Source: Candidatus Omnitrophota bacterium | Lineage (GTDB): Bacteria > Omnitrophota > Gorgyraeia > Zapsychrales > Fredricksoniimonadaceae | Reading direction: 5' to 3' | Assembly (NCBI GenBank): GCA_903908245.1 | Contig: CAIVRE010000015.1 | Span: 5,468-69,467 of the forward strand | Length of the DNA: 64,000 bases | In this document: positions 19-59,141 of the stretch, one piece after another | Position numbering within the stretch: the first letter of the stretch is position 1 | How the letters are laid out: each line of letters opens with the position of its first letter | The notes under the pieces: model-generated | Seen by the model: the letters and a program-made list of their open reading frames with translations, nothing else | The model's database searches: none | What the model was told of the DNA's origin: nothing | Made by a program: the position numbers and the translations under genes

Positions 19-3000
19 ATGGCGCAGGCAGTGCAAACCATTCTTCCGTTCTCTTCATCTATCAGTGCGCCATCGTCCGCGTTCATTCCTGTTCATATTA
101 AAGCACTAAAAGTCAGGGCCGATGAACCGCTGGTGTTTGATTTTGTGATCGATAATGGTACGACCGGCCTTAAAGGAGCGGAGCTGAAAAATGAAACGCA
201 GAAGCTGGCCAAGTATTTTCTGGCGGCGGTGACCATTCCTGAAAAAGACCTTTGGGTCAACCTGTCTCCCTATGAAAATGACCGTATTATTCCCAATGAA
301 CTTGGTCTGACCGAAATGGGCCGTCAGATGTTGTCGCAGGACAGCGTGCTCAAGCAGGTGTCGGCTTCCATCATTAATCCGGAGACCGCTACCGGGAAAT
401 TGTTCTGGGACAAATTGTATGCCAAGGCCAGGGAAGTCCTGGGGACGGTTGAGATCCCCCTGGATTCGTTGCAGAAGATCTGGATCGTGCCTGCGCAAGC
501 CAAGGTGTATGAATTTGATAATACCGCCCTCCTAGGTGGATCGAAGCTGAAGGTCATGCTGGACCAGGATTATTACGCGCTGGGGCTTCAGGCGAAGTCG
601 GCGGATACGGATGTGGCGGATGCCGATGCAGCCAGGACCAGGGACCTGTCCTTGCAGGTGATGAGGGACGTGGTGATCCCGGCGGTGGAGAAAGAGGTTA
701 ATGAGGGGAAAGATTTTGCGCCATTGCGCCAGGTTTATGGGGCGATGATCTTTGCCACCTGGTACAAGAAGGCACTTAAGGAAACATTGCTGGCGCAGGT
801 TTATGCCGACAAGAAAAAGACGGCAGGCGTTGAGACGGAAGACCTGGATGCGCGCGAGCGGATCTATCAGGAATATGTGGAAGCGTTCAAGAAGGGCGCG
901 TTCAGTTTTATCCGCGAGGATGCGGATCCGGTATCCGGCGAGGTTATTCCCCGGAAGTATTTTTCAGGCGGGATCGACGGTACAGAAAATGCCCGTACGG
1001 TTGCCGAGGGGTTGGAGCATGTGCAGGGGCTGAAGGATGTTCCCTCTGCCTCGCAGGCGCCTTCCGCGCCCGATTCCAGCGAGACGGTCGCGACGGTCGC
1101 GCTGCAGCAGAAGGATGGTGTTTCGGGTGTTAAAGATTTTGAAGTGGCGACAGGGGTTTCGTATTTCAAAGGCGATATTAAAACAACACCCATTACGCGT
1201 CCTTTTCGGGCCAGCCGGCAGGATGATGTGAGCGATATAACCAAATTGAATGAGCAGCAGGAATTGACCGCGGAAAGGGCCGGGGCGGAATCGGTGGAGC
1301 GTGGTGAAGGCGCGTTCTTTGTTCTTGCGGCAGGGGCGGCTTCGCGCATGGCGGTCGTACTGGCTCCGGACGATGTCAAGCAATTGGCCGGCGGGGAGGA
1401 GATCCTGTCCAAGGCCGGTGTTCCGGTGGGAGTTATCGACGGGAAGACGGTCAATTATCTGGATGTTTTCGGGCATAATGTGGCCCGGTTGCTGGAGGGG
1501 ATCGACCGGGAAGCCCGGTCGCAGGGGGTCACATCCGCGGCAGACCGGAATATTGTTGGTGTTTTTACGAATGATGAATATCGTGCGGAACATGATCGTA
1601 TCCTGGCCAAAAGCGGGAATTACGGGCTTAAGGCGGGGCAATTGCGTCTTTTTCATCAGCCTCTTGGGCCGAAATATGTCGGGACTCCGGAGGATGTGAA
1701 AAAGCTGGAAGCCAAATTTGCTTCTCCGGAGGCGTTTGCGCGGGCCCTGGCCCTGGCGCAGGACGTTCAGGCAAAGATCGCCAGCGGGGACCGTGAGGCT
1801 GCCAAGAGCGTGGTGCTTGCGAGTGAAAGGGATCCTCAGGGTCACGGGGAGTTTTTTCATCAGCTGATCGTTTCGGGGGAATTCCTGTACCTTTTTAATC
1901 ATGGAAAGAAATGGATCGCGGTCAAGAACATTGATAATATCGCGGCCAAGTTTGACCGGGTATGGTTAAGGATCCTGGGGTTGTTTTTGAACGGGAAGCT
2001 TGATGCTCAGCCGGAAGTTTCTCTTCGTGCGCCCGGGCAGAAAGGCGGAAGCCTGATCGTTATGGAAGATAACGGTTCACATCAGCTGGTGGAAGATCCG
2101 TCGTTGAATGCGACCAAGGATGAGCAGGGAAAGGTCAAGGTAACTCCGACCCAGTCATTCTGGTTCAATGATGCGGTGGCGCTTTTTTCATTGAACTATA
2201 TTGTAAGTATTTATAAGAAGGACGGACAGACCGATGAGGATTTTATTGCCGAATTACGCGGGGCGGACCAGTTAAAGAGGGAAGAGATCGCGGATCGCGG
2301 CCGGCAGAAATTCCCCAAGCTGCTGGATCCCAAGCCCGCCAAGAAACAGGATGCGGTTGCGGTCAAGATCGAGACGAATATGTGGCAATCGACCGGGATC
2401 GTCCCGCAGAGCATCAGCGTTAAGGCTGTCGGGGTTCGCGGTGCCAGGAATTTCCCGATCGCGGAATATCCTGCAATGGCGCAGGAACAGAGGACGGCAG
2501 AGCTTGCGAAGCTTCGGTTCCTCGGCACAAAACAGTGGAGCCTTTCTGATGCCGAGGTCATGAAGGCCAGGGCCGATCTTGAAGCGGCGGTGGGCCGTCC
2601 TGTGACAGATGCAGAATTAAGTCTGACGCTGGAAACATACAGCGGGAATAAAATATTGACGGATGACCTGCTGGATTATATATGGAACCAGCCATTGGTC
2701 CGGCCGGGGGTTTTTAATGGTGTTGATGGCAAAGACCTTGTGGCCGAAGGGTCCAGTGCCGCGCAGGTCGTTGATTTTAATGACGCCAATATTCGCGCCC
2801 AGATCACCGAGAGCGTTGATCGGGGCAATGCGCGGATCGGTTTTGTGAAGCCCGGCGCCATGGAAAAGGCCGGGGCGGACTGGATCATGCAGGTGATCAC
2901 GGATGAGATCGCCAAGAGGGACCTTCCGTTAAGCGTTGTGGTCGGCCCGCGGTTTCAAATGACACGCGCGGAAGCCGAACAGTTCTATATCGGGCATAAA

Positions 3001-3528
3001 GGCCGCCGTAATCCCGCGGGTTTTGAATATGCGCCGGGCTTGTGGGATTCTGTGAGCAATAAAGAGGCCGGCTGGTTCTTGCTGCAGGCCGGGCCGCAGG
3101 GAATGCCGTCGGAACAGGAAATGAAAGACCTGAAGAATGCGGTGCGTGACCGGTACAGCAAGGAGAAGCTTGGTCTTTCCGGCGATGCGGTCTTAAAGCA
3201 AAGGGCGGAAACGGATAATGGCCCTCACTGGTCTGATCCTTTGGGGTCAGACACGAATGCGGCTAATGAGGACTGGAATAATTTGCAGGCAATGCTTGAT
3301 ACGCGTCCTGCGCTGCAAGTCGGGCAGCCCAATGATACGACGGGTGGTATCAATTTCAACGCGACATTGCTGGATATGACCGTTGAGCGCAGCGGCAGCG
3401 GCGTGAAGGTGAATATTGACCCGGTGTTAATCCAACGGATCAAGACCCGGGGCGTGGAGGGGTTTGCTCCGGTGATCATCAATATGATGCCGGTAACCGG
3501 CATGGGCCAGGCGTTGGGAGTGAAGTAG
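19..3528 (+). CDS. Large multidomain protein with a central UDP-glucose/UDP-sugar pyrophosphorylase (UDPGP family) nucleotidyltransferase domain. Reading frame is open to window position 1, so the true start may lie upstream
   Basis: 1169-aa ORF. Central region has a glycine-rich motif VLAAGAASRMAV resembling UGPase LNGGLGTSMG, and later NIDNIAAKFD and KGGSLIVMEDNG resembling UGPase NIDNL and KGGTLI motifs. N-terminal ~400 aa and C-terminal ~450 aa have no family recognised from sequence alone. No stop codon between nt 1 and the first ATG at 19. Confidence 0.6.
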   Translation: MAQAVQTILPFSSSISAPSSAFIPVHIKALKVRADEPLVFDFVIDNGTTGLKGAELKNETQKLAKYFLAAVTIPEKDLWVNLSPYENDRIIPNELGLTEMGRQMLSQDSVLKQVSASIINPETATGKLFWDKLYAKAREVLGTVEIPLDSLQKIWIVPAQAKVYEFDNTALLGGSKLKVMLDQDYYALGLQAKSADTDVADADAARTRDLSLQVMRDVVIPAVEKEVNEGKDFAPLRQVYGAMIFATWYKKALKETLLAQVYADKKKTAGVETEDLDARERIYQEYVEAFKKGAFSFIREDADPVSGEVIPRKYFSGGIDGTENARTVAEGLEHVQGLKDVPSASQAPSAPDSSETVATVALQQKDGVSGVKDFEVATGVSYFKGDIKTTPITRPFRASRQDDVSDITKLNEQQELTAERAGAESVERGEGAFFVLAAGAASRMAVVLAPDDVKQLAGGEEILSKAGVPVGVIDGKTVNYLDVFGHNVARLLEGIDREARSQGVTSAADRNIVGVFTNDEYRAEHDRILAKSGNYGLKAGQLRLFHQPLGPKYVGTPEDVKKLEAKFASPEAFARALALAQDVQAKIASGDREAAKSVVLASERDPQGHGEFFHQLIVSGEFLYLFNHGKKWIAVKNIDNIAAKFDRVWLRILGLFLNGKLDAQPEVSLRAPGQKGGSLIVMEDNGSHQLVEDPSLNATKDEQGKVKVTPTQSFWFNDAVALFSLNYIVSIYKKDGQTDEDFIAELRGADQLKREEIADRGRQKFPKLLDPKPAKKQDAVAVKIETNMWQSTGIVPQSISVKAVGVRGARNFPIAEYPAMAQEQRTAELAKLRFLGTKQWSLSDAEVMKARADLEAAVGRPVTDAELSLTLETYSGNKILTDDLLDYIWNQPLVRPGVFNGVDGKDLVAEGSSAAQVVDFNDANIRAQITESVDRGNARIGFVKPGAMEKAGADWIMQVITDEIAKRDLPLSVVVGPRFQMTRAEAEQFYIGHKGRRNPAGFEYAPGLWDSVSNKEAGWFLLQAGPQGMPSEQEMKDLKNAVRDRYSKEKLGLSGDAVLKQRAETDNGPHWSDPLGSDTNAANEDWNNLQAMLDTRPALQVGQPNDTTGGINFNATLLDMTVERSGSGVKVNIDPVLIQRIKTRGVEGFAPVIINMMPVTGMGQALGVK

Positions 3529-5532: not shown

Positions 5533-6081
5533 ATGCGATTTGCCAAACTTCTTTTATTGTTCGTTTTGCTGATGCCGGTGTCGGGCTGTGACCGCATTTA
5601 CGCTTTTTTGCACAAGCCGGGCGGGGAAGAGCGCCAGATCCTCGGGCCTTTCGAGTTCAATGTCTACAATGCGAGAGTGGAAGAAGTGCAGAAGGTCCTC
5701 AAGGGGTTCGGTTATAATATTGGCCGTCCGGACGGAAAATTCGGCGCCTCCACCCGTGAGGCCGTGGCGAGGTTCCAGGCGGATGAGGGCATCAAGGTCA
5801 CGCGTTTTGTCGACAAGGATACCTGGGCCGCGATGCAGGGATATTTGCAGGGGCCGTTGTTCAGGAAAGGCCTGCTCGATGGCCGCGCGGTGCAGAAGGC
5901 GCTGGCGAAGGCCGGGTTCGGGGCGGGCAAGGTTGACGGCCAGATCGGGCGCCGCAGCCGCGAGGCGCTCAAGGCGTTCCAGGCTTCCCAGGGGCTTGAT
6001 GCGGACGGGCAGATCGGGCTTCGGACCATAAAAGCCCTGTTGAAGTATTCCGCTTTACCGGCCGCAAAACCCGGGATGTGA
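5533..6081 (+). CDS. Lipoprotein with two peptidoglycan-binding (PG_binding_1-like) repeats
   Basis: Signal peptide MRFAKLLLLFVLLMPVSGC (lipobox). Repeated motif GxxDGKFGxxTxxAVxxFQ occurs twice. Confidence 0.6.
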   Translation: MRFAKLLLLFVLLMPVSGCDRIYAFLHKPGGEERQILGPFEFNVYNARVEEVQKVLKGFGYNIGRPDGKFGASTREAVARFQADEGIKVTRFVDKDTWAAMQGYLQGPLFRKGLLDGRAVQKALAKAGFGAGKVDGQIGRRSREALKAFQASQGLDADGQIGLRTIKALLKYSALPAAKPGM

Positions 6082-6109
6082 TATACTTGTTCAAATTCGG
6101 AGACCATAT

Positions 6110-7330
6110 ATGCCCAAAGTGAAAAGCCAGCTTTCTTCCAAAGATGAACTGATCATCCTTCGCAAGGTCGTTGATATTACGACTTCCGAGGTTGATCTCG
6201 ATGGTGTCTTGAGCGAGATCATCAAGGTCGCTCTGGCGATCGCGCCGGCAGATTCGGTGTTCGTTTATCTTTTTGACGCGGAGCACCGGAACCTGGTCTT
6301 GCGCGCTTCGAAGACGCCGCACAAGCAGGAACTGGGGCAGGTGACGCTCAAGGTTGGCGAGGGGTTGACCGGATGGGTCGCGAAGAACGTGAAGCCGTTG
6401 GCGATCAAGGCCAACGCGTATGATGATCCGCGTTTCAAGGCGTTCGATGTCCTTCCCGAAGACCGTTACGAGGCTTTTCTGGCCCTGCCGATCCTCTATA
6501 AGGGAAAAGCCATCGGCGTCATCAATCTTCAGCATAAAAAACCGTTCGATTTCCCGGTGAGTGTCGTGAACCTGCTGAGTATGGCGGCCCGGCAGCTGGG
6601 GAGCGTGGTCGAACATGCCCGCCTTTTCAGCGAAACCCGGCAGAAGGCATTGCAGTTCGACAGCCTGGTGAAGGTGAGCCAGTCGATCACGTCCGAAAAA
6701 TATCTCGACGAGATCTTAAGCCTTATTGTTATCGTCACGGCGGAAATGTTGAATTCCAAGATCTGTTCCGTGATGCTTTTGGATGCCAAGGGGACGGAGC
6801 TGGTCATCAAGGCTACGCAGAGCCTGAGCGATGATTATAAGAAGAAGCCGAACCTGAAAGTGGATGCCAGCTTGATCGGCGAAGTGATCAAGACCCTGCG
6901 CCCGCTGGTGGTCGAGGATGTCCGCAAGGAGAAGCGGTATTTTTATCGTGACCTGGCGGTCAGGGAAGGCCTGAGCACCATGGTGGCGGTGCCGATGATC
7001 GTCAAGGACAAGGCGATCGGGGTCATTAATGTTTATACGAAAGAGCCTCATGTTTTTACGGCGGATGAGGTGGGCGTGCTGCAAATGGTGGCTAACCAGG
7101 CGGCCGCGGCGGTGGAGAACACGCGCTGGATGGAAGAGGCGCTTAAAGCCAAGGAAGCGCTGGAGACCCGCAAGCTGGTGGAGCGCGCCAAGGGGATCCT
7201 TATGAAGATGAACGGCCTTTCCGAGGAGACCGCGTATAAAATGATCCACCGCAAAAGCATGGACTCCTGCCGATCGATGAAAGATATCGCGGAATCCATC
7301 CTTCTTATGGTGGATTTCCAGAAAACCTAA
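6110..7330 (+). CDS. GAF-GAF-ANTAR RNA-binding antitermination regulator
   Basis: 406 aa. Two GAF-like domains (..GEGLTGWVAKN.., ..IGVINLQHKKP.., second copy ..IGVINVYTKEP..). C-terminal ANTAR signature LVERAKGILMKMNGLSEETAYKMIHRKSMDSCRSMKDIAESIL. Confidence 0.7.
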   Translation: MPKVKSQLSSKDELIILRKVVDITTSEVDLDGVLSEIIKVALAIAPADSVFVYLFDAEHRNLVLRASKTPHKQELGQVTLKVGEGLTGWVAKNVKPLAIKANAYDDPRFKAFDVLPEDRYEAFLALPILYKGKAIGVINLQHKKPFDFPVSVVNLLSMAARQLGSVVEHARLFSETRQKALQFDSLVKVSQSITSEKYLDEILSLIVIVTAEMLNSKICSVMLLDAKGTELVIKATQSLSDDYKKKPNLKVDASLIGEVIKTLRPLVVEDVRKEKRYFYRDLAVREGLSTMVAVPMIVKDKAIGVINVYTKEPHVFTADEVGVLQMVANQAAAAVENTRWMEEALKAKEALETRKLVERAKGILMKMNGLSEETAYKMIHRKSMDSCRSMKDIAESILLMVDFQKT

Positions 7331-7334
7331 CTAC

Positions 7335-7368
7335 CTTCACCCTCTCCGGCAGGGAGAAGGTTTTTTTT
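7335..7368 (+). terminator. Intrinsic terminator after the ANTAR regulator gene
   Basis: Stem CCTTCACCCTCTCC-GGCAG-GGAGAAGG followed by T8. Confidence 0.5.
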
Positions 7369-7369
7369 G

Positions 7370-7398
7370 TTGACAACTTTTTTTTCAGCGGATATACT
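7370..7398 (+). promoter_or_regulatory. Sigma70-type promoter for glnN (TTGACA-N17-TATACT)
   Basis: Consensus -35 at 7370-7375, 17-nt spacer, -10 TATACT at 7393-7398. About 115 nt upstream of the glnN ATG, leaving a structured leader. Confidence 0.5.
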
Positions 7399-7512
7399 TT
7401 TTGAGATTCGAAAGCTTAAAGGCTTTCAAAAGACTGAAGCAGGGCATTGATGTCCTCTTTCGAAAAGGAATTTTCGGCGGGGGATTTTTTCTTTTAAAAA
7501 CAGGAGGTTTAT

Positions 7513-9612
7513 ATGGCAGCAAAGGTCAGCAAGAAGGTTGTCAGCGCGGTCGAGTCTTTGTATGGCGAGAATGTGTTCAGCATTAACGTCATGAAGAAGG
7601 TCCTTTCGAAGAAGGCGTTCGATTCCATCAGCAGGACGATGAATGAAGGCGGCGCGCTTGACCCGGCTATTGCGACGGAAGTCGCGGGTGCGATGAAGGA
7701 TTGGGCGGTTGCCAAGGGTGCCACGCATTTCTGCCACTGGTTCCAGCCGCTCACCGGCACCACGGCTGAAAAACACGATTCGTTCATTTCTCCTGACGGC
7801 CAGGGCGGTGTCAAGATGGAGTTTTCCGCCAAAGAGCTTATCCAGGGCGAGCCGGATGCTTCTTCGTTCCCGTCGGGCGGTTTGCGCGCCACGTTCGAGG
7901 CCCGCGGCTATACGGCGTGGGACCCCACCAGCCCCGCGTTTATTAAAGAAGGCGCCGAGGGCGCAACGTTGTGTATCCCGACCATCTTCTGCGGGTATCA
8001 TGGCGAAGCACTTGACAAAAAGGCCCCGTTGCTCCGTTCGATCGCGGCGTTGGCCAAGCAGATGGACCGTGCCGGCAAGCTGTTCGGTGTCAAGCCTGTT
8101 ACCAAGGCGTATGCCACGCTGGGACCCGAGCAGGAATATTTCCTGATCGATAAATCATTCTATGAGCAGCGACTGGACCTGGTGCAGACCGGCCGTACGC
8201 TGTTCGGCCGCAAGCCGGCCCGCCATCAGCAGATGGAAGATCATTATTTCGGCGCTATTCGTCCGCGGATCCTGGCGTTCATGGAAGAGCTCGACCAGAC
8301 GCTCTGGAAACTCGGGATGCCGTCCAAGACCCGTCATAACGAGGTTGCTCCGGCCCAGTTCGAGATCGCGCCCATTTACGAGCGTCTGAACCTGGCGGTC
8401 GATCATAACATGATGTGCATGGATGTGATGAAGCAGATCGCCGACAAGCATGGCCTGGTCTGCCTGCTGCACGAGAAGCCTTTTGCCGGTGTTAACGGCA
8501 GCGGCAAGCACAATAACTGGTCGGTGGTCGGTACGGACGGCAAGAACTGGCTTTATCCCGGTTCCAGTCCGCATGAGAATGCGAAGTTCCTGTTCACGCT
8601 TTGCGCGATCATCAAGGCGGTGGACGAGAACGCGGCATTGCTCCGCGCCACTGTCGCAACTCCCGGCAATGATCATCGCCTGGGTGCCAATGAAGCGCCA
8701 CCGGCGATCATTTCCGTATTCCTGGGTGACCAGCTGACGGATATCATCGACCAGCTTGAGAGCGGCGAGGCGAAGTCCGCCAAGAGCGGCGGCACCATTC
8801 AGATCGGCGTGGATGTTATTCCGACCCTTCCGAGGGATGCCACCGACCGCAATCGCACCTCTCCCTTTGCGTTCACGGGCAACAAGTTTGAGTTCCGTGC
8901 GCTGGGTTCCAACATGAGCCCGTCGGGTGCGAATGTGGCCCTGAACACCATCGTGGCTTCCGCCATTGATGATATGTGCACACAGCTTGAGGGCGATCTC
9001 AAGGCCAAGAAGGATTTCAACAAGTCCCTGCAGGCTGTTTTACAGGCGATCATCAAGAAGCACAAGCGTGTGCTTTTCAATGGCGACAATTATACCGAAG
9101 AATGGCATAAGGAAGCCGAGAAGCGCGGGTTGCCGAATTTTAAGACCACGCCCGAAGCCCTGAAGGTCCTGGAAGATGAAAAGACCGTCAAGTTGTTCGA
9201 GAAGTACGGGGTCCTTTCCAGAAAAGAGCTTTTGTCCCGTTATGAGATCTACATGCATAACTACAAGAGTGTCCTGGCTTACGAGGCGGAATGCGCCAAG
9301 ACGATCGCGTCCACCCAGATATTCCCGGCGGTGGTGGAGTACCAGGCGGTCCTGGCTGCCACGGTGAAAGCGGTTGACGAGGCCGGTTGCAAGGCCGCTG
9401 CCGCGAAAGTCGTTCTGGGTAAGGTGTCCAAGCTGGCCGATGAATTGTCCGCTGGTATTGAAGCGCTGGAAATCGCGATCGAACACCATTCGACCGACAA
9501 GATGAAGTCCGCGATGCTTCAGGCGCGTGCCGCGGTGGATGAGCTTGAAGCGCTGGTCCCGGCCGATCTGTGGCCGTTGCCGACGTATGCCGAAATGCTG
9601 TTCTTGTATTAA
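7513..9612 (+). CDS. glnN: Glutamine synthetase type III (GlnN)
   Basis: 699 aa, the length of GSIII. N-terminus MAAKVSKKVVSAVESLYGENVFSINVMKK and internal motifs match GSIII as I recall them. Confidence 0.8.
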   Translation: MAAKVSKKVVSAVESLYGENVFSINVMKKVLSKKAFDSISRTMNEGGALDPAIATEVAGAMKDWAVAKGATHFCHWFQPLTGTTAEKHDSFISPDGQGGVKMEFSAKELIQGEPDASSFPSGGLRATFEARGYTAWDPTSPAFIKEGAEGATLCIPTIFCGYHGEALDKKAPLLRSIAALAKQMDRAGKLFGVKPVTKAYATLGPEQEYFLIDKSFYEQRLDLVQTGRTLFGRKPARHQQMEDHYFGAIRPRILAFMEELDQTLWKLGMPSKTRHNEVAPAQFEIAPIYERLNLAVDHNMMCMDVMKQIADKHGLVCLLHEKPFAGVNGSGKHNNWSVVGTDGKNWLYPGSSPHENAKFLFTLCAIIKAVDENAALLRATVATPGNDHRLGANEAPPAIISVFLGDQLTDIIDQLESGEAKSAKSGGTIQIGVDVIPTLPRDATDRNRTSPFAFTGNKFEFRALGSNMSPSGANVALNTIVASAIDDMCTQLEGDLKAKKDFNKSLQAVLQAIIKKHKRVLFNGDNYTEEWHKEAEKRGLPNFKTTPEALKVLEDEKTVKLFEKYGVLSRKELLSRYEIYMHNYKSVLAYEAECAKTIASTQIFPAVVEYQAVLAATVKAVDEAGCKAAAAKVVLGKVSKLADELSAGIEALEIAIEHHSTDKMKSAMLQARAAVDELEALVPADLWPLPTYAEMLFLY

Positions 9613-9642
9613 GGGCGGCAGAATTAAAGGTTGAATTATAAA

Positions 9643-9681
9643 GGGCTCAAGTGCTGCATGGTGCTTGAGCCCTTTGTGTTT
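9643..9681 (+). terminator. Intrinsic terminator after glnN
   Basis: GGGCTCAAG-tgctgcatggtg-CTTGAGCCC followed by TTTGTGTTT. Confidence 0.6.
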
Positions 9682-13441: not shown

Positions 13442-13528
13442 AAAATAGTTGCTTTTACATGCCCGTGGACTTAAAATACACGCCTTTATATAACAAAATA
13501 ATCTTATAAGCCTATCGGAGTTCTTCCA

Positions 13529-16189
13529 ATGAATGCTGGCGGTTATCCTTCCAAACAGGGGCTTTATGACCCTCAATTTGAACATGATGCGTGCGGTGTC
13601 GGCTTTGTGGCGGATATCAAAGGCCGCAAGTCCCATGAGATCGTCCGTCAGGGCATCAGTATCCTTGAGAACCTGGCGCATCGCGGCGCGTGCGGCTGCG
13701 ACCCTTTAACAGGGGACGGCGCGGGTATTTTACTGCAGATGCCGGACCAGTTCCTGCGCAAGGCCGCGAAAGCCGAAGGTTTCGTGCTTCCGGCGCCGGG
13801 GGATTATGCCTGCGGGATGGTCTTTCTTCCCGTTGAGCCTCAGTCGCGCAATATCATCGAGGAGTGGGTCGAGCAGATCATTCATGAGGAAGGCCAGCAG
13901 TTCCTGGGTTGGCGCGCCATCCCCCACGATGACAGGCATGTCGGCCGGGTCGCCCATTCGGTACAGCCGGAATTGAGGCAGATCTTTATCGGCCGCGGCG
14001 CGGATACGAAACCCGAGGAATTCGAGCGTAAATTATATGTCCTGCGCAAGCGTTGCTGGACGAAAGTCCACACGTCCACGGTGCATGACCGCAGTTATTT
14101 TTATATTTGCAGCCTGTCGTCAAAGACGATCGTTTATAAAGGCCAGTTCATGGCCGAACAGCTGGGGCCGTTCTTTTCCGACCTTTCCGACCCCGATATG
14201 ATCTCGGCGCTCGCGCTGGTCCATTCGCGTTACAGCACGAATACTTTTCCGACCTGGTCCTTGGCGCATCCTTACCGCCTGCTGGCGCATAACGGCGAGA
14301 TCAACACCCTGCGCGGCAACCTGAACTGGATGCGTGCGCGCGAAGCGCAAATGGCCAATCAGTTGTTCGGCAAGGACGTGAAGAAGATCTATCCGATCGT
14401 CGGCCCATTCGGGAGCGATTCGGCATCGTTCGATAACGCGCTGGAGCTCCTGGTCATGGCCGGACGTTCCTTGCCCCACGCGGTCCTGATGATGGTCCCT
14501 GAAGCCTGGGTGGGCGATGAGGCGATCAGCGCGGAAAAGCGCGCGTTCTATGAATATCATGCCCTGTTGATGGAGCCATGGGACGGCCCGGCGTGCATCG
14601 CGTTCACGGATGGCAGTTATATCGGGGCGGTCCTGGACCGCAACGGGCTTCGTCCGTCGAGATATACGGTCACCAAAGACGGCCTGGTCGTAATGGCGTC
14701 CGAGACGGGGGTCCTTCCGATCGCGCCGGAACGGGTGGCGAAGAAAGGCCGCTTACAGCCCGGGAAGATGTTCTTGATCGATACGGTCGGGGGCCGGATC
14801 ATCGATGACAAGGAGATCAAGGAGACATATGCCCGGCGCAAGCCTTACGGGCAGTGGCTCAAGGATAATATTGTCGATCTGAAGGATTTGCCGGAGCCCA
14901 GGAAGGTTTCGGGGCTGAATGAAAAAACACTCATGGAGCGCCAGCGTGCGTTCGGCTATACGCAGGAAGACCTCAAGATCGTCCTGAAAGCCATGGTCGA
15001 GAACGGGGAAGAGGCGACAGGATCCATGGGGGCGGATAACCCGGTCGCGGTGCTGTCCGGCCGTTCACAGCTCTTCTTCAATTATTTTAAACAGCTTTTT
15101 GCCCAGGTCACCAATCCGCCGGTTGATCCCATCCGTGAAGAGGTCGTGATGGCGGAAAATGTCTATCTTGGCTCCGAAGGCAATATCCTGGCGGAAACGC
15201 CCGATCATGCCCGCCGTTTGCGGCTGGCTCGGCCGATTCTGACCAACAGGGAGCTGGAACAGATCGCGCATGTGAACATGTCCGGATTGAAAAGCGCAAC
15301 GTTCCCGATCGTTTTCCGCAAGGCCGATGGCCCCGGCGGGCTGGCCAAGGCGATGGACGAGCTGTTCGTCCGCGTGGACAAGGCGATCGCGGAGGGCGTT
15401 AATATCCTGGTCCTTTCCGACCGCGAGATGGGCGCGAAGAGCGTGGCCATCCCGTCGTTGCTGGCGTGCGCGGGACTGCACCATCATTTGATCCGCAAGG
15501 GAACGCGCACCAAAGTGTCCCTTGTCCTTGAAACGGGCGAGGCGCGTGAAATGCACCATTTCGCGGTCCTGATCGGTTACGGCGCGAACGCGGTCAATCC
15601 GTACCTTGCGCTGGAAACGATCGAAAGCGAAGTGAACAAGGGGAATTTCAAAGGGCCTGATCTGGACTGGCATCACGCGGAGAAGAATTATATCAAGGCC
15701 ACGCGCAAGGGCTTGTTCAAGATCATTTCCAAGATGGGGATCTCGACCATCCAGTCGTATTGCGGCGCGCAGATCTTCGAGGCTGTCGGGCTTGGCAAGG
15801 AGCTGATCGAAAAGTATTTTACCGCCACGCCGTCGCGGATCGGCGGGATCGAGATCGGGACCGTTGCCGAGGAATCCCTGCTCCGTCACGCGCAGGGGTA
15901 TCCTGATGCCGGGCCGGAAGAGCACCTGCTCGATGAAGGCGGCTGGTACCACTGGCGCAAAGACGGGGAATACCATCAGATCAACCCCGAGGTCATTGCG
16001 ACGCTGCAGCAGGCGGTGCGTGCGAACGATTATCAGCTGTTCAAGAAATTCAGCAAGACCGTCAATGAGGCCGACCGGACCATTCCCAATATCCGCGGCC
16101 TGATGCAGTTCAAAAAAGGCGCGGCTATTCCCTTATCCGAGGTTGAACCGGCCTCCGAGATCGTGAAGCGTTTTGCGACCGGGCGATGA
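13529..16189 (+). CDS. gltB: Glutamate synthase large subunit GltB, N-terminal part (Ntn-amidotransferase and central domains). Interrupted by an apparent 1-nt frameshift
   Basis: Starts [30 protein letters not shown] (Cys1 nucleophile). Ends ...VKRFATGR*, exactly where intact GltB reads FATGAMSYGS. Confidence 0.8.
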
Positions 16190-18060
16190 GCTACGGTTCC
16201 ATTTCCAAGGAAGCGCATGAGACGATGGCCATTGCCATGAACCGCCTGGGCGGTTTTTCCAACACCGGTGAAGGCGGGGAAGACCCCTTGCGGTTTAAAA
16301 AGGATGCTAACGGTGATGTCCGCCGCAGCCGCATCAAACAGGTGGCGCAGGGGCGGTTCGGTGTCAACATTGAATACCTGGTCAATTCTGACCAGATGCA
16401 GATCAAGATGGCGCAGGGGGCCAAGCCCGGCGAGGGCGGCCAGCTTCCCGGCCACAAGGTCACGCAGGAGATCGCAAAGACCCGCGGCACAACGGCAGGC
16501 GTCCAGCTGATCTCGCCGCCGCCGCATCATGATATTTATTCGATCGAGGACCTGGCCCAGCTGATCCATGACCTGAAGAACGCCAATCCGCAGGCGGATG
16601 TGAGCGTGAAGCTTGTGTCCGAGATCGGCGTGGGGACGGTCGCGGCCGGCGTGTCCAAGGGCAAGTCCGACCATGTTCTGATCTCGGGTTATGACGGCGG
16701 TACGGGGGCGTCCCCGCAGACGTCTATCAAGCATGCCGGCCTTCCGATGGAGCTCGGCCTTGCCGAGACCCAGCAGGTCCTGGTCATGAACGATCTGCGC
16801 GGGCGTATCCGCGTGCAGGCGGACGGCCAGCTCAAGACGGGGCGGGACGTGGTCATTACGGCGATGCTTGGCGCGGATGAGTTCGGGTTTTCCACTATTG
16901 TACTGGTTACGCTCGGGTGCGTCATGTTGCGCAAATGCCATCTGGATGCCTGTTCGGTCGGCATTGCGACCCAGGATCCGCAGCTGCGCGCGAATTTTGC
17001 CGGCAAGCCGGAGTATGTGGTGAGTTTCTTCACGTTCCTGGCCGAGGAGATCCGCGAGTTGATGGCTGAACTGGGTTTCCGGAAGTTCGAGGACATGGTC
17101 GGCCGCGTGGATATGCTGGAAGCCAAGGATGTCATCAGCCACTGGAAATTGAAGGGGATCGACCTTGCGAATATCCTGCATCGGGTGGATGTTCCCAAAG
17201 AGGTCCCTATTCATCATTGTTTGAAGCAGGAGCATGGCCTGGAGAAGGCGCTGGATAATGAGCTTATCGTAAAATGCCGGGACGCTGTCGAAAACAAAAC
17301 GCCGGTGCGCTTTTCGTCCGCGGTCAGGAATGTCAATCGTACTGTCGGGACGATGCTCAGCTCCACGATCGCCCGCCGTTACGGGATGGCCGGACTTCCG
17401 GAAGGGACCATTCACATCGATTTTACGGGTTCGGGCGGGCAGAGTTTCGGGGCGTTCCTTTCCAGGGGTGTCACCTTTGAACTGGAAGGCGATGCCAACG
17501 ATTATGTCGGCAAGGGGTTGTCCGGCGGCCGGATCATTGTGTATCCGTCGAAAAAGGCTTCGCTGGTGGCGGAAGACAACATCCTTATCGGCAATGTGGT
17601 CCTTTACGGGGCGATCGCCGGCGAGGCGTATTTTCGCGGGATCGCCGGCGAACGTTTTTGCGTGCGTAATTCGGGCGGGCACGCCGTTGTGGAGGGAGTG
17701 GGGGACCACGGTTGTGAATATATGACGGGCGGACGGGTCGCAGTCCTTGGAGGCACGGGGCGTAATTTTGCGGCGGGGATGTCCGGCGGCATTGCGTATG
17801 TCCTGGATGCGGACGGGACGTTCGCCAGCCGCTGCAATATGGGGATGGTGGACCTCTTTCCCGTTTTGGACGCTTCCGATGTTGCGGAGCTTAGGGGCAT
17901 GATCGAACGCCATCAAAAGCATACGCAAAGTGTTGTTGCCGGGAACATCCTTGAGCATTGGGATATAACGCTGCCGCGGTTCGTGAAGGTTTATCCTCGC
18001 GATTTCCGCAAGGCGGTAGAAAAAGCGCAACAGGCCGCAGTGCCGGCCGGCAAGGGATAA
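16186..18060 (+). CDS. gltB: Glutamate synthase large subunit GltB, C-terminal part (FMN-binding and GXGXG domains). Continuation after the frameshift
   Basis: Begins [23 protein letters not shown]..., the conserved FMN-domain sequence, in the -1 frame relative to the upstream part. The two parts total ~1510 aa, matching full-length GltB. Confidence 0.8.
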
Positions 18061-31680: not shown

Positions 31681-33078
31681 ATGCGTGATCGCGGGCAAGT
31701 GCTTCTTGAGTATCTTCTTTTGCTGGGACTGGTGGCGGTCCTGGCGCTGGCGTCGTTCAAACCGGGCGGTATTATCAGCCAGACGGGGACAAGCGCTAAT
31801 ACTTATTTTAAAACCGGTCAACGCGCGATCCTGGGCGGGTATGTTGACGCGTCGGGTAAACAGGTGATGGAAGACCCGGCGCCTATCCATGGAGGCTGGT
31901 GCGATTTCTCCTCATGTATTAACGGGGTCAAGGTCAGGGAATGTGCCTGTCCAAGGCCGGCCTTCGGCGGGACAGAGTGTGTGGGGGATGCGGTTATTCC
32001 TGCGGATTGTTCAGGAGGCGGCAATGGAGGCGGTTGTACTCCCAGTTGCGCGGGCAAATGCAGCGGGAGCGATGGCTGTACCGGGACCTGTCCGAATAAC
32101 TGTTCCTATCCTCAAACCTGCGGCGGCGGCGGGGTGCCCAATGTTTGCGGGGGCGGGTGCACGCCCAATTGCGCAGGCAAATGCGGCGGGGGTAATGGTT
32201 GTTCCGGGACCTGTCCTGATAATTGTTCATTTCCTCAAAGTTGCGGCGGCGGCGGGGTGCCCAATGTTTGCGGGTGTATCACCAGTTGCGCGGGTAAATG
32301 CGGCGGGAGCGATGGTTGTACCGGGACTTGCCCTGATAATTGCGTGGCTCCTCAAACCTGCGGTGGCAGCGGGACGGCCAATGTCTGCGGGCAATGCGTT
32401 TCTACCGGTTGTGCGGCCGCGGCAACCATTACATGCGGCCTGTCGTATTTTGACAATTGCGGAACATATTGCGGCCTCGGCCAGGATTGCGTGGGGGCGT
32501 GTGGCGTCTGCCCCGATGGTACTCCTTGCAATTTCATCAGTGACTACAAAGATGCCGGCGGTTACGATAATCAATTCACCACATGCCAATGTGGCGCAGG
32601 GTTGAGTTGTTCCGGGCTTACAAAGCCGATCGATCTTTCGGCTTCCATAGCAGGAACCTGGGCCTGTTATTCTTACGCAGGAATGGATCATGCCAGATGC
32701 GGAGCGTCCTGGGTAAAGTGCTTTCCCAGTTGCGTAGGTAAATGCGGAGGCGGGAGCGACGGGTGTATGGGGACCTGTTTCAATGCCTGCACATTGCCTC
32801 AAACCTGCGGCGGCGGCGGGACTCCCAAGGTTTGCGGCTGCACGCCGGTTTGCGCCGGGAAATGCGGCGGCTCGGACAGTTGCGGTTCGACGTGTCCCAA
32901 TAATTGCGTATCACCTCAAACCTGCGGCGGCGGCGGGGTATCCAATGTCTGCGGGTGTACGGCCAATTGCGCGGGCAAGTGCGGAGGATCCAACGGGTGT
33001 TCGGGGACCTGTCCCAACAATTGTGCGGCTCCTAAAACCTGCGGCGGCGGCGGGACGCCCAATGTCTGCGGCCCGTGA
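31681..33078 (+). CDS. Flp/TadE-like (class III prepilin signal) protein carrying six Cys/Gly-rich ~38-aa repeats and a distinct Cys-rich central domain
   Basis: N-terminus MRDRG|QVLLEYLLLLGLVAVLALA matches the Flp/TadE motif G-x4-E-Y after a short basic leader. Then 6 copies of C-x3-CAGKCGG-x-DGC-x-GTCPNNC-x2-PQTCGGGG-x-PNVCG, with 8 Cys per repeat. Confidence 0.65.
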   Translation: MRDRGQVLLEYLLLLGLVAVLALASFKPGGIISQTGTSANTYFKTGQRAILGGYVDASGKQVMEDPAPIHGGWCDFSSCINGVKVRECACPRPAFGGTECVGDAVIPADCSGGGNGGGCTPSCAGKCSGSDGCTGTCPNNCSYPQTCGGGGVPNVCGGGCTPNCAGKCGGGNGCSGTCPDNCSFPQSCGGGGVPNVCGCITSCAGKCGGSDGCTGTCPDNCVAPQTCGGSGTANVCGQCVSTGCAAAATITCGLSYFDNCGTYCGLGQDCVGACGVCPDGTPCNFISDYKDAGGYDNQFTTCQCGAGLSCSGLTKPIDLSASIAGTWACYSYAGMDHARCGASWVKCFPSCVGKCGGGSDGCMGTCFNACTLPQTCGGGGTPKVCGCTPVCAGKCGGSDSCGSTCPNNCVSPQTCGGGGVSNVCGCTANCAGKCGGSNGCSGTCPNNCAAPKTCGGGGTPNVCGP

Positions 33079-50164: not shown

Positions 50165-51070
50165 ATGAATCTTATTGTCAAGATCGGAACAGCGGTGTTC
50201 CCTAATCCAGTTACCGTGGCGTCCGGGACATTCGGCCATGCCGAGGAATTTTACGGGCAGGAAGAAGTCAAGAGGCTGGGGGCCCTTGTTCCCAAGACGG
50301 TGACCTTGCAGGCCCAGCAGGGCAACCCCCCGACGCGCATTTGTGAGACTCCGGCGGGAATGATCAATGCCATCGGGATCGAGAATCCGGGGATCGACCG
50401 GTTTATCGACGAGAAATTGCCGAAGTTAAAAGCGACAGGCGTGCCGTTGATCGTCAGTATTTCCGCTCATAGTGAAGATGACTTTGCATTGATGGTCGAA
50501 AAGCTGAACGCAGCCGGTGGTTTGAGCGCGGTCGAGCTTAATTTGTCTTGCCCGAACCTTCAGAAGAAAGTGCTGGTGGCGCAATCGGCGGAAGCGACAT
50601 TTGCCGTAGTGCGCCGCGTCAAAGAAGTTTCGAAGTACCCGGTCATTGCCAAACTTTCGCCCAATGTCACGGATATTGCCGCGATCGCATTAGCGGCCGA
50701 AGAGGCAGGGGCGGATGGCATCAGCATGGTCAATACGTTCATGGCTATGGCGATCGATATCAGAAAACGCTGTTCGCGGATCGGGAATTTTACCGGAGGG
50801 CTTTCCGGACCGGCGATACGCCCCATTGCGGTGCGTATGGTGTGCGAGACCGCTGCAAAGGTGAAGATCCCCATTATCGGGATGGGGGGCATTACGAATG
50901 CGGATGATGCGCTGGAATTTCTTATTGCCGGCGCTTCGATGGTGGCGGTGGGGACTTACAATTTTGTGGACCCTCGCGCGCCGTTGGCGGTTCTCGACGG
51001 TATTAAGGCATATATGAAGGCCAACAAGATGACAGATATCCGTGAATTGATCGGGAGTATCCGGCGATGA
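50165..51070 (+). CDS. pyrD: Dihydroorotate dehydrogenase catalytic subunit (class 1B)
   Basis: MNLIVKIGTAVFPNPVTVASGTFG... LNLSCPN active-site region. Confidence 0.85.
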   Translation: MNLIVKIGTAVFPNPVTVASGTFGHAEEFYGQEEVKRLGALVPKTVTLQAQQGNPPTRICETPAGMINAIGIENPGIDRFIDEKLPKLKATGVPLIVSISAHSEDDFALMVEKLNAAGGLSAVELNLSCPNLQKKVLVAQSAEATFAVVRRVKEVSKYPVIAKLSPNVTDIAAIALAAEEAGADGISMVNTFMAMAIDIRKRCSRIGNFTGGLSGPAIRPIAVRMVCETAAKVKIPIIGMGGITNADDALEFLIAGASMVAVGTYNFVDPRAPLAVLDGIKAYMKANKMTDIRELIGSIRR

Positions 51071-57338: not shown

Positions 57339-59141
57339 ATGGTGAAAGACAATAACAGGCTTCAACACATGAGCGTGGCCATGCCTGAGGGGAAGGCTGT
57401 TGCGATCATGCAACAGATGTCAGAGATCATCAGTGTCTTGATCTTTTTTGGCGGATGTATTGTCCTGATGGGGTGGGCATTGGATATTGCGGCTTTGAAG
57501 AGCGTCCTTCCGGGACTGGTCACGATGAAGGCCAATACGGCGCTTTGTTTTGTCCTGATCGGTCTGGCCTTGTGGTGTCTGCAGATGAAGCGGGCGGATC
57601 ATGTCTGGTCGCGTTTAACCGCGGAACTATGTGTTTTTGTGCTTTTGTCCATCGGTCTTGTGACGATGTGTGAGTATGCCTTTCAATGGAACCCGGGCAT
57701 TGATCAATTATTGTTCCAGGACTCGGCCAGCGCTGTTTTGACGTCTTCTCCTGGAAGAATGGCTTTAAATACGGCGATCAACTTCGTATTGATCGCTTTA
57801 GCTTTCTTATTCTCAAGTCGCAAGAGGGTGAGGCTTGATCATGTGGCACAGAGTTTGACTTTGTTTGTTGTCTACACGTCCCTTTTAGCTCTCGTGGGGT
57901 ATTTTTATGGGGCAGCGCCTCTTTATTTTGGTCAGAAGTTCAGTACGGCCATGGCGTTCCATACGGCGGTTTTTTTTGTCCTGTCGGCCTTCGGGATCTT
58001 TTTTTTACGTTCCGAGAGAGGTTTCATGGCCCAGGTCACCTCTGATCTTATGGGAGGCAATATCCTGCGTCGAATATTACCAGTTGCGATCCTTGTTCCG
58101 ATCAGCATGGGATTTTTCGAGATATTCGCGCAAAGAATAACCTTGTTCAGCAATGAATTTGGCGTTTCGCTGGTGGCGATGGGAAATCTTTCCTTTGTTG
58201 TGCTGTATATTTATTTTCTTGGAAGGCTGTTGAATTATTCGGATGCCGGGCGAAAAGGGCAGGAGGATTCAACAGCTGCAGCAAAAGAATATCTTGAAAA
58301 GATCATCAATGCCGTGGCTGACCCCATCTTTGTCAAGGATCAGGAGCATCGCTGGGTCTTGTATAATTCCGCCTTTCTTGCATTTATTGGACGCAAGGCT
58401 GGGGAATTACAGGGAAAGTCTGATTATGATTTTTTTCCCAGGGAGCAGGCGGATATTTTCTGGAAGAAAGATGAAGAGGTGTTTTTCGGAGGAAAAGAGA
58501 TCATTAATGAGGAGTTCTTCACGGACGGAAAAGGGACCCTCAGGACGATCATTACCAAGAAGACATTATATGAAGACCCATCAGGTAGGAAGTATATCGT
58601 GGGGATCATTCAGGATATTACGGACCGAAAGGTTGTGGAGGAGGCTCTTAAGGCAAGTGAAGTTCGTCATCGGGAGATGTTTGGCCGGATGAGAAGCGGT
58701 GTGGCTGTTTACGAGGCGAAAAAGGACGGCGAGGATTTTATTCTCAGAGATTTTAATCCGGAGGCTGAGCGTACCAATCAAGTGAAGAGGGAAGATATTC
58801 TCGGGAGGAGCGTTTTGGATGTTTTTCCAAACGTCCGTGATACGGGCATCTTCAATGTTTTTCAGCGTGTTTGGAAGACCGGGATATCCGAAAATTATCC
58901 TGCTGTCTTTTACAAGGATGAACGTATAGCCCGCTGGTTCGAGAACGATGTTTATAAGCTTCCTTCTGGGGAGATCGTTGCTATCTTTAATGATGTCACT
59001 GAGCAGAAAATGGCAGGAGAAGAGGTGCGTAAGCGTATCAAGGAAATGGAGATCTTGTATAAGGTGAGCATGGGGAGGGAAGAACGTATCCTGGAGTTAA
59101 AAAAGAAAGTCATGGAGCTGGAGTTGAAGCTTGGGACGTAG
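57339..59141 (+). CDS. Polytopic membrane sensor (8-9 TM) with two cytoplasmic PAS domains and the same C-terminal tail. No kinase domain
   Basis: Hydrophobic N-terminal 300 aa. PAS-like regions. C-terminal ...KEMEILYKVSMGREERILELKKK. Confidence 0.6.
   Translation: MVKDNNRLQHMSVAMPEGKAVAIMQQMSEIISVLIFFGGCIVLMGWALDIAALKSVLPGLVTMKANTALCFVLIGLALWCLQMKRADHVWSRLTAELCVFVLLSIGLVTMCEYAFQWNPGIDQLLFQDSASAVLTSSPGRMALNTAINFVLIALAFLFSSRKRVRLDHVAQSLTLFVVYTSLLALVGYFYGAAPLYFGQKFSTAMAFHTAVFFVLSAFGIFFLRSERGFMAQVTSDLMGGNILRRILPVAILVPISMGFFEIFAQRITLFSNEFGVSLVAMGNLSFVVLYIYFLGRLLNYSDAGRKGQEDSTAAAKEYLEKIINAVADPIFVKDQEHRWVLYNSAFLAFIGRKAGELQGKSDYDFFPREQADIFWKKDEEVFFGGKEIINEEFFTDGKGTLRTIITKKTLYEDPSGRKYIVGIIQDITDRKVVEEALKASEVRHREMFGRMRSGVAVYEAKKDGEDFILRDFNPEAERTNQVKREDILGRSVLDVFPNVRDTGIFNVFQRVWKTGISENYPAVFYKDERIARWFENDVYKLPSGEIVAIFNDVTEQKMAGEEVRKRIKEMEILYKVSMGREERILELKKKVMELELKLGT

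Follow-up and report, generated by a model that had tools for sequence, protein, structure and literature searches.

A predicted ANTAR-type transcription attenuation switch between a tandem-GAF regulator gene and glnN in Omnitrophota

We analysed 64,000 nucleotides (nt) of DNA from a Candidatus Omnitrophota bacterium (contig CAIVRE010000015.1, positions 5,468 to 69,467), referred to below as the window, in whose coordinates positions are given. A gene for a GAF-GAF-ANTAR protein lies there directly upstream of glnN, which encodes a type III glutamine synthetase. The leader between the two genes probably contains an ANTAR-type transcription attenuation switch worked by the upstream protein as a one-component regulator, a reading to which we assign a probability of roughly 0.78 and in which protein binding, termination, polarity and ligand are predictions. 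Its centre is a small hairpin (P2) with a hexaloop of the ANTAR type, the 3′ arm of which is also the base of an intrinsic terminator. The initial annotation of the window had proposed RNA-level ANTAR control of glnN; the overlap of P2 with the terminator, and the conservation of the two as a module beside orthologous regulator genes, argue for this proposal.

The regulator is encoded by an open reading frame (ORF) of 406 amino acids (6110-7330, + strand). Pfam searches identified GAF domains (PF01590, 1.7e-35, in two stretches) at about residues 14-172 and 199-337, and an ANTAR domain (PF03861, 7.8e-21, 74.1 bits against a curated cut-off of 27.3) at residues 347-398. The glnN product (7513-9612, + strand, 699 amino acids) matched GSIII_N (6.6e-76), Gln-synt_C-ter (1.9e-40) and Gln-synt_C (5.4e-22), and both genes are therefore what the initial annotation took them to be. 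Proteins identical or nearly identical to the regulator came in every case from Candidatus Omnitrophota metagenome-assembled genomes. The ANTAR domain could be aligned without gaps to those of Rv1626 (7.3e-11), EutV (4.4e-09) and NasR (6e-08). In EutV the hexaloop is contacted by R142, K143, K147, Y164, which stacks on the G at loop position 4 (G4), and M172 (Walshe et al. 2022, PMC8934654). Ungapped alignment to PDB entry 6wsh, whose chain numbering differs by 2 from the published one as judged by the spacing of the R, K, K, Y and M residues, showed that these residues are kept in the regulator as R354, K355, R359 (K to R), Y376 and M384.

The regulator gene ends in an intrinsic terminator, detected by a terminator scan and already annotated at 7335-7368, with a stem at 7334-7360 (-13.0 kcal/mol) followed by U8 at 7361-7368. 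Two bases past the U8 begins a sigma-70-type promoter on the same strand, TTGACA (7370-7375) and TATACT (7393-7398) separated by a 17-nt spacer, which agrees with the consensus at 11 of 12 positions and bears out the consensus promoter annotated at 7370-7398. A leader of roughly 110 nt separates this promoter from glnN. Reading of the sequence placed the glnN start codon at 7513-7515 and its ribosome-binding site, AGGAGG, at 7502-7507; both lie downstream of the switch and outside its elements, and the ribosome-binding site pairs with none of them.

Three structural elements were found in the leader, all on the + strand. The 5′ hairpin, P1 (GAAAGC-UUAAAG-GCUUUC, 7410-7427, -6.4 kcal/mol), is a conserved helix. 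P2, the predicted ANTAR-binding hairpin, has the sequence A-GGGC-AUUGAU-GUCC-U (7441-7456, core 7442-7455), and its hexaloop (7446-7451) carries A at position 1 and G at position 4 (A1/G4). The terminator (UCCUCU.UCGAAAA-GGAA-UUUUCGG.C.GGGGGA, stem 7453-7484, -13.6 kcal/mol) is followed by U6CU4 at 7485-7495. Nucleotides 7453-7456 belong both to the 3′ arm of P2 and to the 5′ arm of the terminator, so that the two folds are mutually exclusive. The initial annotation had noticed P1, but the P1 loop lacks A1 and G4, and P2, the decisive hairpin, was missed. An A/U-rich hairpin with a U-tract, which it placed at about 7451-7480, is real but constitutes only the inner part of the 13-pair terminator. 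It had failed to recognise canonical A-x-x-G hexaloops; one is present, the AUUGAU of P2, but a strict dual arrangement is not.

The two exclusive folds were compared by thermodynamic prediction. In constrained folding of the 90-nt leader the energy was -23.8 kcal/mol with the terminator enforced and -23.4 kcal/mol with P2 enforced and its loop open. Ensemble pair probabilities for the terminator and P2 helices were 0.52 and 0.48 respectively, and the leader is thus predicted to be bistable, with nearly isoenergetic states. Snapshots of the growing chain indicated that P2 forms first, and that the terminator becomes the minimum-energy fold only once 7479-7484 have been added. Because the fold energies are nearly equal the leader appears poised, and a protein that clamped P2 would decide the outcome.

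From these features we infer the following course of events, in which the transcription start, termination and read-through, the binding of P2 by this protein, the direction of regulation and the ligand are all predicted. The strong, probably constitutive, sigma-70 promoter at 7370-7398 would start the leader transcript at about 7405. P1 (7410-7427) would form, and then P2 (7442-7455). By default, once 7479-7484 had been transcribed, the more stable terminator (7453-7484) would capture the UCC(U) of P2, and together with the U-tract at 7485-7495 it would halt the polymerase some 20 nt short of the glnN ribosome-binding site. When the GAF-GAF-ANTAR protein was active, its ANTAR domains would bind the P2 hexaloop, with G4 stacked on Tyr376 as in EutV. 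P2 would then be held closed and 7453-7456 kept from the terminator, which could not nucleate from its base. The weak inner hairpin that remained would lie 7 nt from the U-tract, and polymerase would read into glnN. The activating signal would most likely be nitrogen limitation, with both GAF domains directly reading low glutamine and/or high 2-oxoglutarate. Adjacency, shared strand and the match of P2 to the ANTAR loop rule are what suggest that this protein is the partner of this RNA.

Comparison with related genomes supplied the main support for the switch. Orthologues of the regulator were sought in one genome per species; the loci recovered are from metagenome bins, and all of the evidence presented here is computational. 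Orthologues with 64-92% identity were present in 40 Omnitrophota species, and in 11 related species glnN lies directly downstream of the regulator gene. In an alignment of 12 orthologous regulator-glnN spacers the promoter hexamers and the P2 sequence were invariant, and P1 and the terminator covaried. Five of the six P1 pairs had changed on both sides. The terminator helix (13 pairs) was 93.5% paired, with compensatory changes at four pairs. The pairing and covariation scores of P1 and the terminator were reached by none of 500 shuffles, and every measure was higher than in every slid register.

Copies of P2 elsewhere in the related loci showed the same arrangement. The exact motif was found 33 times, always on the strand of the regulator gene (33/33), and 31 of these copies were intergenic. 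Among the 32 intergenic instances of the exact motif, the window included, 29 were followed by a hairpin that starts from the UCC of P2 and stands directly before a U-tract or no more than 3 nt from it. The UCC-anchored hairpins had predicted energies of -11 to -22 kcal/mol and ended in GGA. When the loop was left unconstrained, G4 was present in 44 of 47 copies, and position 1 was a purine in 46 (A in 34, G in 12). A six-nucleotide loop with G4 and A or G at position 1, emerging without being imposed, is exactly the ANTAR loop rule. A generic descriptor of a hairpin with an RNNGNN hexaloop overlapping a terminator gave 58 matches on the regulator strand of the related loci and 5 on the other strand. 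The module lay directly downstream of the regulator gene, and on its strand, in at least 24 of the 40 species. Most modules in the relatives are preceded by a sigma-70 promoter of the type found before glnN.

A covariance model was built solely from six relatives outside the clade of the window. It matched the window over its full length at 7403-7494 with 51.1 bits (E = 4e-9, E-values from this home-built model being rough), and it gave 31 matches in the related loci, all on the + strand. A second match in the window, at 57901-58006 (20.6 bits, E = 0.06), falls in a T-rich stretch inside a 600-amino-acid ORF and was discarded as noise.

By homology P1 corresponds to the first ANTAR hairpin in the relatives. 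In six distant relatives the P1 loop has an invariant G4 (AACGCG, AGUGUG, AGUGAG, (C)AAUGAA, GGUGAC and GAUGUU), and the linkers between P1 and P2 measure 10-17 nt. The window loop is non-canonical, with A replacing G at position 4, and P1 loops throughout the window clade have decayed, to UUAAAG, UUUUUG or UUCCAUG; in one close relative (L003) P1 has been deleted. Distances from the -10 hexamer to P2 fall into two modes in the phylum, 42-50 nt with P1 present and 13-18 nt with no room for it. A strict scan for dual A1/G4 hexaloops downstream of the regulator gene in the 40 loci yielded few clean pairs, and the conserved unit thus appears to be P2 with its terminator rather than a tight dual hairpin. 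Since its loop G4 has decayed, since it has gone from L003, and since many leaders are too short to contain it, P1 looks dispensable, and the conserved core looks like one hexaloop hairpin plus a terminator.

An alternative first hairpin was also considered. P1′ (UUUCA-AAAGAC-UGAAG, 7424-7439, + strand) has an A1/G4 hexaloop and sits 1 nt from P2, and with P2 it makes up one of three pairs (7424-7456) that the strict dual scan returned in the window. P1′ is predicted at only -1.0 kcal/mol and competes with the covarying P1 for 7424-7427. In the alignment 65% of its cells were paired, no better than in shuffles, and it was retained merely as a doubtful alternative. A hexamer of the form A-N-N-G-A-C/A occurs in the P1-P2 linker, 7-9 nt upstream of P2, in the window (7429-7434) and in loci L001, L002, L004, L005 and L007, as AAAGAC, AAUGAC, ACCGAC, AAUGAA, GUCGAC or GACGAC. 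In this clade, in which the G4 of P1 has been lost, the hexamer could be a replacement protein contact or a coincidence. The other two pairs from the dual scan were treated as chance because they lie in coding sequence with no terminator after them. One, at 42880, is inside a coding region. The other, at 50169-50201 (+ strand), comprises AUCUU-AUUGUC-AAGAU, a single C, and GGAAC-AGCGGU-GUUCC; it corresponds to the first codons of an ORF at 50165-51070 and is probably fortuitous.

Several results weigh against an ANTAR switch in this leader. The folding energy of the leader is ordinary when compared with shuffled sequence (z = -0.39). The exact sequence GGGCANNGNNGTCC occurs once in the window, at P2 only, against 0.29 expected. 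No leader match was obtained when the window was searched at gathering score with Rfam 15, in which glutamine riboswitches and amino-acid and ribosomal leaders are represented, which returned four tRNAs only, and permissive filters (E up to 10) applied to 7300-7560 produced noise-level matches only (E = 2 to 9). The scan with the Rfam ANTAR model suggested in the initial annotation thus brought to light no ANTAR-like or other family in the leader at either setting. Within the glnN leaders the P2 stem shows no covariation; support for its pairing comes only from one-sided variants elsewhere (GGAC/GUCC and GGGC/GCCC). The window leader also departs from the dual-hexaloop rule, with a P1 loop of UUAAAG and a P1-P2 linker of 13-14 nt. 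Finally, the source lineage is represented by uncultured metagenome-assembled genomes, with computational evidence only. The generic descriptor matched the window four times, against about two matches in random sequence. Three of these matches (10478, 11031 and 37364) are inside or antisense to coding regions, at the level of random expectation, and were set aside; only the one at 7441 is intergenic. Evidence from the window by itself is weak, and the case therefore rests on the comparative data.

It is these comparative data that dispose of the simplest rival explanation, that nothing is regulated and the hairpins are accidents of an A/T-rich spacer. The leader z-score and the descriptor count in the window would suit such an explanation, but not an invariant promoter and P2, or a covarying P1 and terminator, in species that share no more than 64-77% protein identity; the covariance-model match (E = 4e-9) and the strand asymmetry of 58 to 5 contradict it further. 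We consider chance refuted, and its residual probability extremely small. A real attenuator might instead have P2 read by another RNA-binding protein, by a metabolite as in a riboswitch or by a small RNA, in which case adjacency to the regulator gene would reflect no more than a shared nitrogen theme. The invariance of the P2 stem sequence would suit a sequence-specific reader outside the ANTAR family equally well, and the regulator gene itself has no module upstream. Such a reader would nevertheless have to share the ANTAR loop rule, which emerged from the P2 copies, and it would leave to coincidence a module directly 3′ of the regulator gene, always on its strand, in 24 or more of the 40 species. 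A 14-nt hairpin is moreover too small for a metabolite pocket, and no riboswitch or leader family of Rfam was matched even at E = 10. We regard another reader as improbable. It is likewise quite improbable, in our judgement, that the main effect of the ANTAR protein, once on the leader, is on mRNA stability or translation, with the hairpin serving for constitutive partial attenuation, for processing or for stability. Actinobacterial ANTAR RNAs are described as acting on translation, and ANTAR RNA matches overlapping ribosome-binding sites have been mentioned. In many relatives P2, 13-18 nt from the -10 hexamer, comes at the very start of the transcript, where stabilising hairpins are typically found. 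In the window, however, the ribosome-binding site at 7502-7507 is free of switch elements, and the only feature kept in all leader classes is the overlap of the P2 3′ arm with the base of the U-tract hairpin. This overlap is the signature of terminator/antiterminator competition.

A further alternative leaves the attenuation switch as described and alters its input only, which makes it compatible with our explanation: the GAF domains might sense a cyclic nucleotide, redox state, haem or a partner such as P-II, or the polarity might be reversed, with the ligand-bound form inactive. The nearest solved structures to the first GAF domain are GAF domains of PtsP (3ci6, 1.7e-18; 3trc, 2.6e-14), and the best NCBIfam families for the GAF parts are PtsP (7.9e-36, 123.6 bits) and NifA (3.5e-29, 102 bits, best on the second GAF domain). 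The GAF domain of Azotobacter NifA reportedly binds 2-oxoglutarate, to which the E. coli EI-Ntr protein reportedly also responds. Glutamine is bound by a PtsP GAF domain (PMC4848567). Glutamine and/or 2-oxoglutarate as the ligand of the regulator is a lead from domain similarity, and should be taken as a guess. Against it, the PtsP and NifA matches cover the GAF parts only and score far short of the 583 and 529 bits set as cut-offs for the full-length families, so that the likeness is at the level of the domain. The second GAF domain also matches those of cyclic GMP phosphodiesterases (5w10, 3.1e-09), and GAF domains as a class bind many ligands (PMC3369931). On the other hand, the two top GAF families are both sensors of nitrogen status, and the genes behind the modules belong to core ammonium assimilation. 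A different ligand or the opposite polarity accordingly seems to us rather unlikely, though it deserves to be taken seriously.

In the relatives the genes behind the modules encode an ammonium transporter (PF00909), P-II (PF00543), glutamine synthetases of type I and type III, and a small DUF2934 protein. The predicted regulon is the core ammonium-assimilation set, with modules before glnN, amtB-glnK and glnA. Only the glnN leader carries a module within the window. No P2-terminator module was found upstream of the regulator gene, and the regulator therefore appears not to be autoregulated through P2. A possible promoter for the regulator gene (TTACCG, 17 nt, TGATATACT) was noticed at 6056-6090, inside the 3′ end of the preceding ORF (5533-6081), which encodes a peptidoglycan-binding domain.

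The small DUF2934 ORF (about 71 amino acids, 8.8e-12) stands between the regulator gene and amtB in many relatives, for example at L019:5339-5554, L029:5357-5572, L023:2606-2821 and L017:5328-5600. As it has a P2-plus-terminator module on each side, it appears to be part of the same regulon. The module of the amtB leader (GGGCAUUGAAGUCCGGUUUUAUGUGC...) is nearly identical in several species, at L017:5751, L019:5735, L023:2970, L027:2645, L029:5731 and L035:5765. It begins a few nucleotides past the U-tract of the preceding terminator, which places two terminator modules in series. Loci L010, L026 and L031 also have two or three modules in tandem.

The initial annotation had named the whole glutamine synthetase-glutamate synthase (GS-GOGAT) block as a natural target. 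This is upheld for glnN but not for the GOGAT genes. A search for similar leaders before gltB had been suggested; the spacer at 13442-13528 is unstructured and has no hexaloop hairpin, terminator or model match, a result for the window only, as gltB is outside the flanks of the related loci. A terminator-like hairpin of 19 pairs (9637-9678, + strand, -28.5 kcal/mol) follows glnN, which is therefore probably a single-gene transcription unit. With no module before gltB and a hairpin of its own at the end of glnN, the GOGAT genes were dropped as a target on the evidence so far.

Antitermination of nitrogen genes by ANTAR proteins is already established for NasR, NasT, GnfR and NitR, and in 2012 ANTAR RNA matches were reported upstream of P-II, Amt and GS genes as predicted sites (PMC3369931). 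The mechanism proposed here is not new; the tandem-GAF input, the single-hairpin sites and the lineage are. The nearest known relative of the glnN switch is the GnfK/GnfR system of Geobacter sulfurreducens (Ueki and Lovley 2010, PMC2995071), where the GnfR site, CAGGCAANGGCGCC, reaches into the terminators that precede glnK, amtB and nif genes. In both systems an ANTAR protein controls, or is predicted to control, leader terminators of ammonium-assimilation genes through one short conserved upstream site that overlaps the terminator. The GnfR site is closely resembled by CAGGGCAUUGAUGUCC in the window, and the relatives have CAGGGCAAUGGCGUCC, the common layout being CA, a G/C stem, an A-N-N-G hexaloop and overlap of the stem with the terminator. 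GnfR differs in being a REC-ANTAR response regulator that is phosphorylated by the kinase GnfK and operates under a sigma-54/GnfLM cascade. The Omnitrophota switch would have its GAF input on the same polypeptide, sigma-70 promoters, a four-pair stem (GGGC/GUCC) and, in the window, a type III glutamine synthetase as its target.

The closest system in logic is NasR, a NIT-ANTAR protein of Klebsiella oxytoca. It too is a one-component regulator whose gene adjoins the operon that it controls, through a leader terminator, in a nitrogen-assimilation pathway. NasR has a NIT sensor that binds nitrate and nitrite, and it acts on nasF in nitrate assimilation, whereas the Omnitrophota protein has tandem GAF domains and is predicted to act on glutamine synthetase and ammonium transporter genes. 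A precedent for ANTAR control of glutamine synthetase is provided by NitR of Clostridium saccharobutylicum, an ANTAR-family protein encoded within a GS gene cluster, which is reported to induce GS and GOGAT genes through antitermination when nitrogen is limiting (Stutz et al. 2007, cited in PMC6316151). In the window, by contrast, the GOGAT genes show no sign of being targets. PtsP (EI-Ntr) and NifA resemble the regulator in their GAF domains, which are the best matches to its own, but their outputs are a phosphotransferase and a sigma-54 activator, whereas that of the regulator is an RNA-binding ANTAR domain.

By definition ANTAR leaders contain a hexaloop hairpin, P2, that can form only when a terminator does not (Ramesh et al. 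2012, PMC3369931). The glnN leader resembles EutV sites in the six-nucleotide A1/G4 loop of P2, in the overlap of its 3′ arm with the terminator, and in the loop-contact residues kept in the regulator. EutV, however, needs P1 and a linker of 5-12 nt, and induction was abolished when P1 was deleted or the linker was 14 nt (PMC3369931). The Omnitrophota leaders differ in exactly these respects, with the UUAAAG loop and 13-14-nt linker of the window, the loss of P1 from L003 and the many leaders that lack room for P1. A single hexaloop was subsequently described as the minimal ANTAR site (Walshe et al. 2022, PMC8934654). The window leader is thus not a member of the strict dual-hexaloop class, but it fits this minimal single-hexaloop site.

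The GAF-ANTAR subclass was listed as uncharacterised in 2012 (PMC3369931), and again in publications of 2020 and 2025. Our literature search found no paper on GAF-ANTAR control of glutamine synthetase, nor any that connects Omnitrophica with ANTAR. The results presented here offer the subclass a concrete predicted regulon and a plausible ligand class, and they give a first handle on the regulation of nitrogen assimilation in Omnitrophota, an uncultured phylum. They also provide a phylum-wide collection of clean natural candidate sites, many consisting of one hexaloop hairpin and a terminator right after the promoter, which bear on the number of hairpins, one or two, that an ANTAR protein requires. 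A 406-amino-acid protein and a 90-nt leader are small enough to be tested in vitro or in a heterologous host.

A broader interpretation is possible, although we hold it tentatively and think it somewhat more likely to be wrong than right. The tandem-GAF ANTAR protein may be the master nitrogen regulator of Omnitrophota, sensing glutamine and/or 2-oxoglutarate directly through its PtsP- and NifA-like GAF domains. It would control amtB-glnK, glnA and glnN by antitermination alone, at constitutive consensus promoters, through a single GGGC-ANNGAN-GUCC hairpin at the very 5′ end of each transcript, in place of the classical site with two hairpins. If so, ligand and regulon would be defined for a GAF-ANTAR protein for the first time, and nature itself would demonstrate that one hexaloop suffices in vivo.

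Some further features of the window were recorded. The ORF at 19-3528 (1169 amino acids) has only a partial match, at residues 603-717, resembling UDP-glucose pyrophosphorylase, and the ORF at 31681-33078 (465 amino acids) gave no Pfam match. Between 7513 and 30150 lies an unusual cluster, on one strand, of genes whose products make or consume glutamine. Their order is glnN, a class I glutamine amidotransferase gene, glutamine-dependent nadE, gltB, gltD, carA, carB, a purF-like amidophosphoribosyltransferase gene and the CTP synthase gene, with an Lnt-like gene and a few others interspersed. The order regulator, glnN, amidotransferase, nadE is kept in close relatives. Within this cluster a frameshift at 16170-16200, midway through the FMN-binding (Glu_synthase) domain, breaks gltB into ORFs at 13529-16189 and 16186-18060. 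At the junction CGT TTT GCG ACC GGG CGA TGA (R F A T G R stop) is succeeded in the next frame by ATG AGC TAC GGT TCC ATT TCC (M S Y G S I S). The split could be a homopolymer error in the assembly, the mark of a pseudogene or genuine; one extra G in the GGG run would restore a single protein of about 1510 amino acids.

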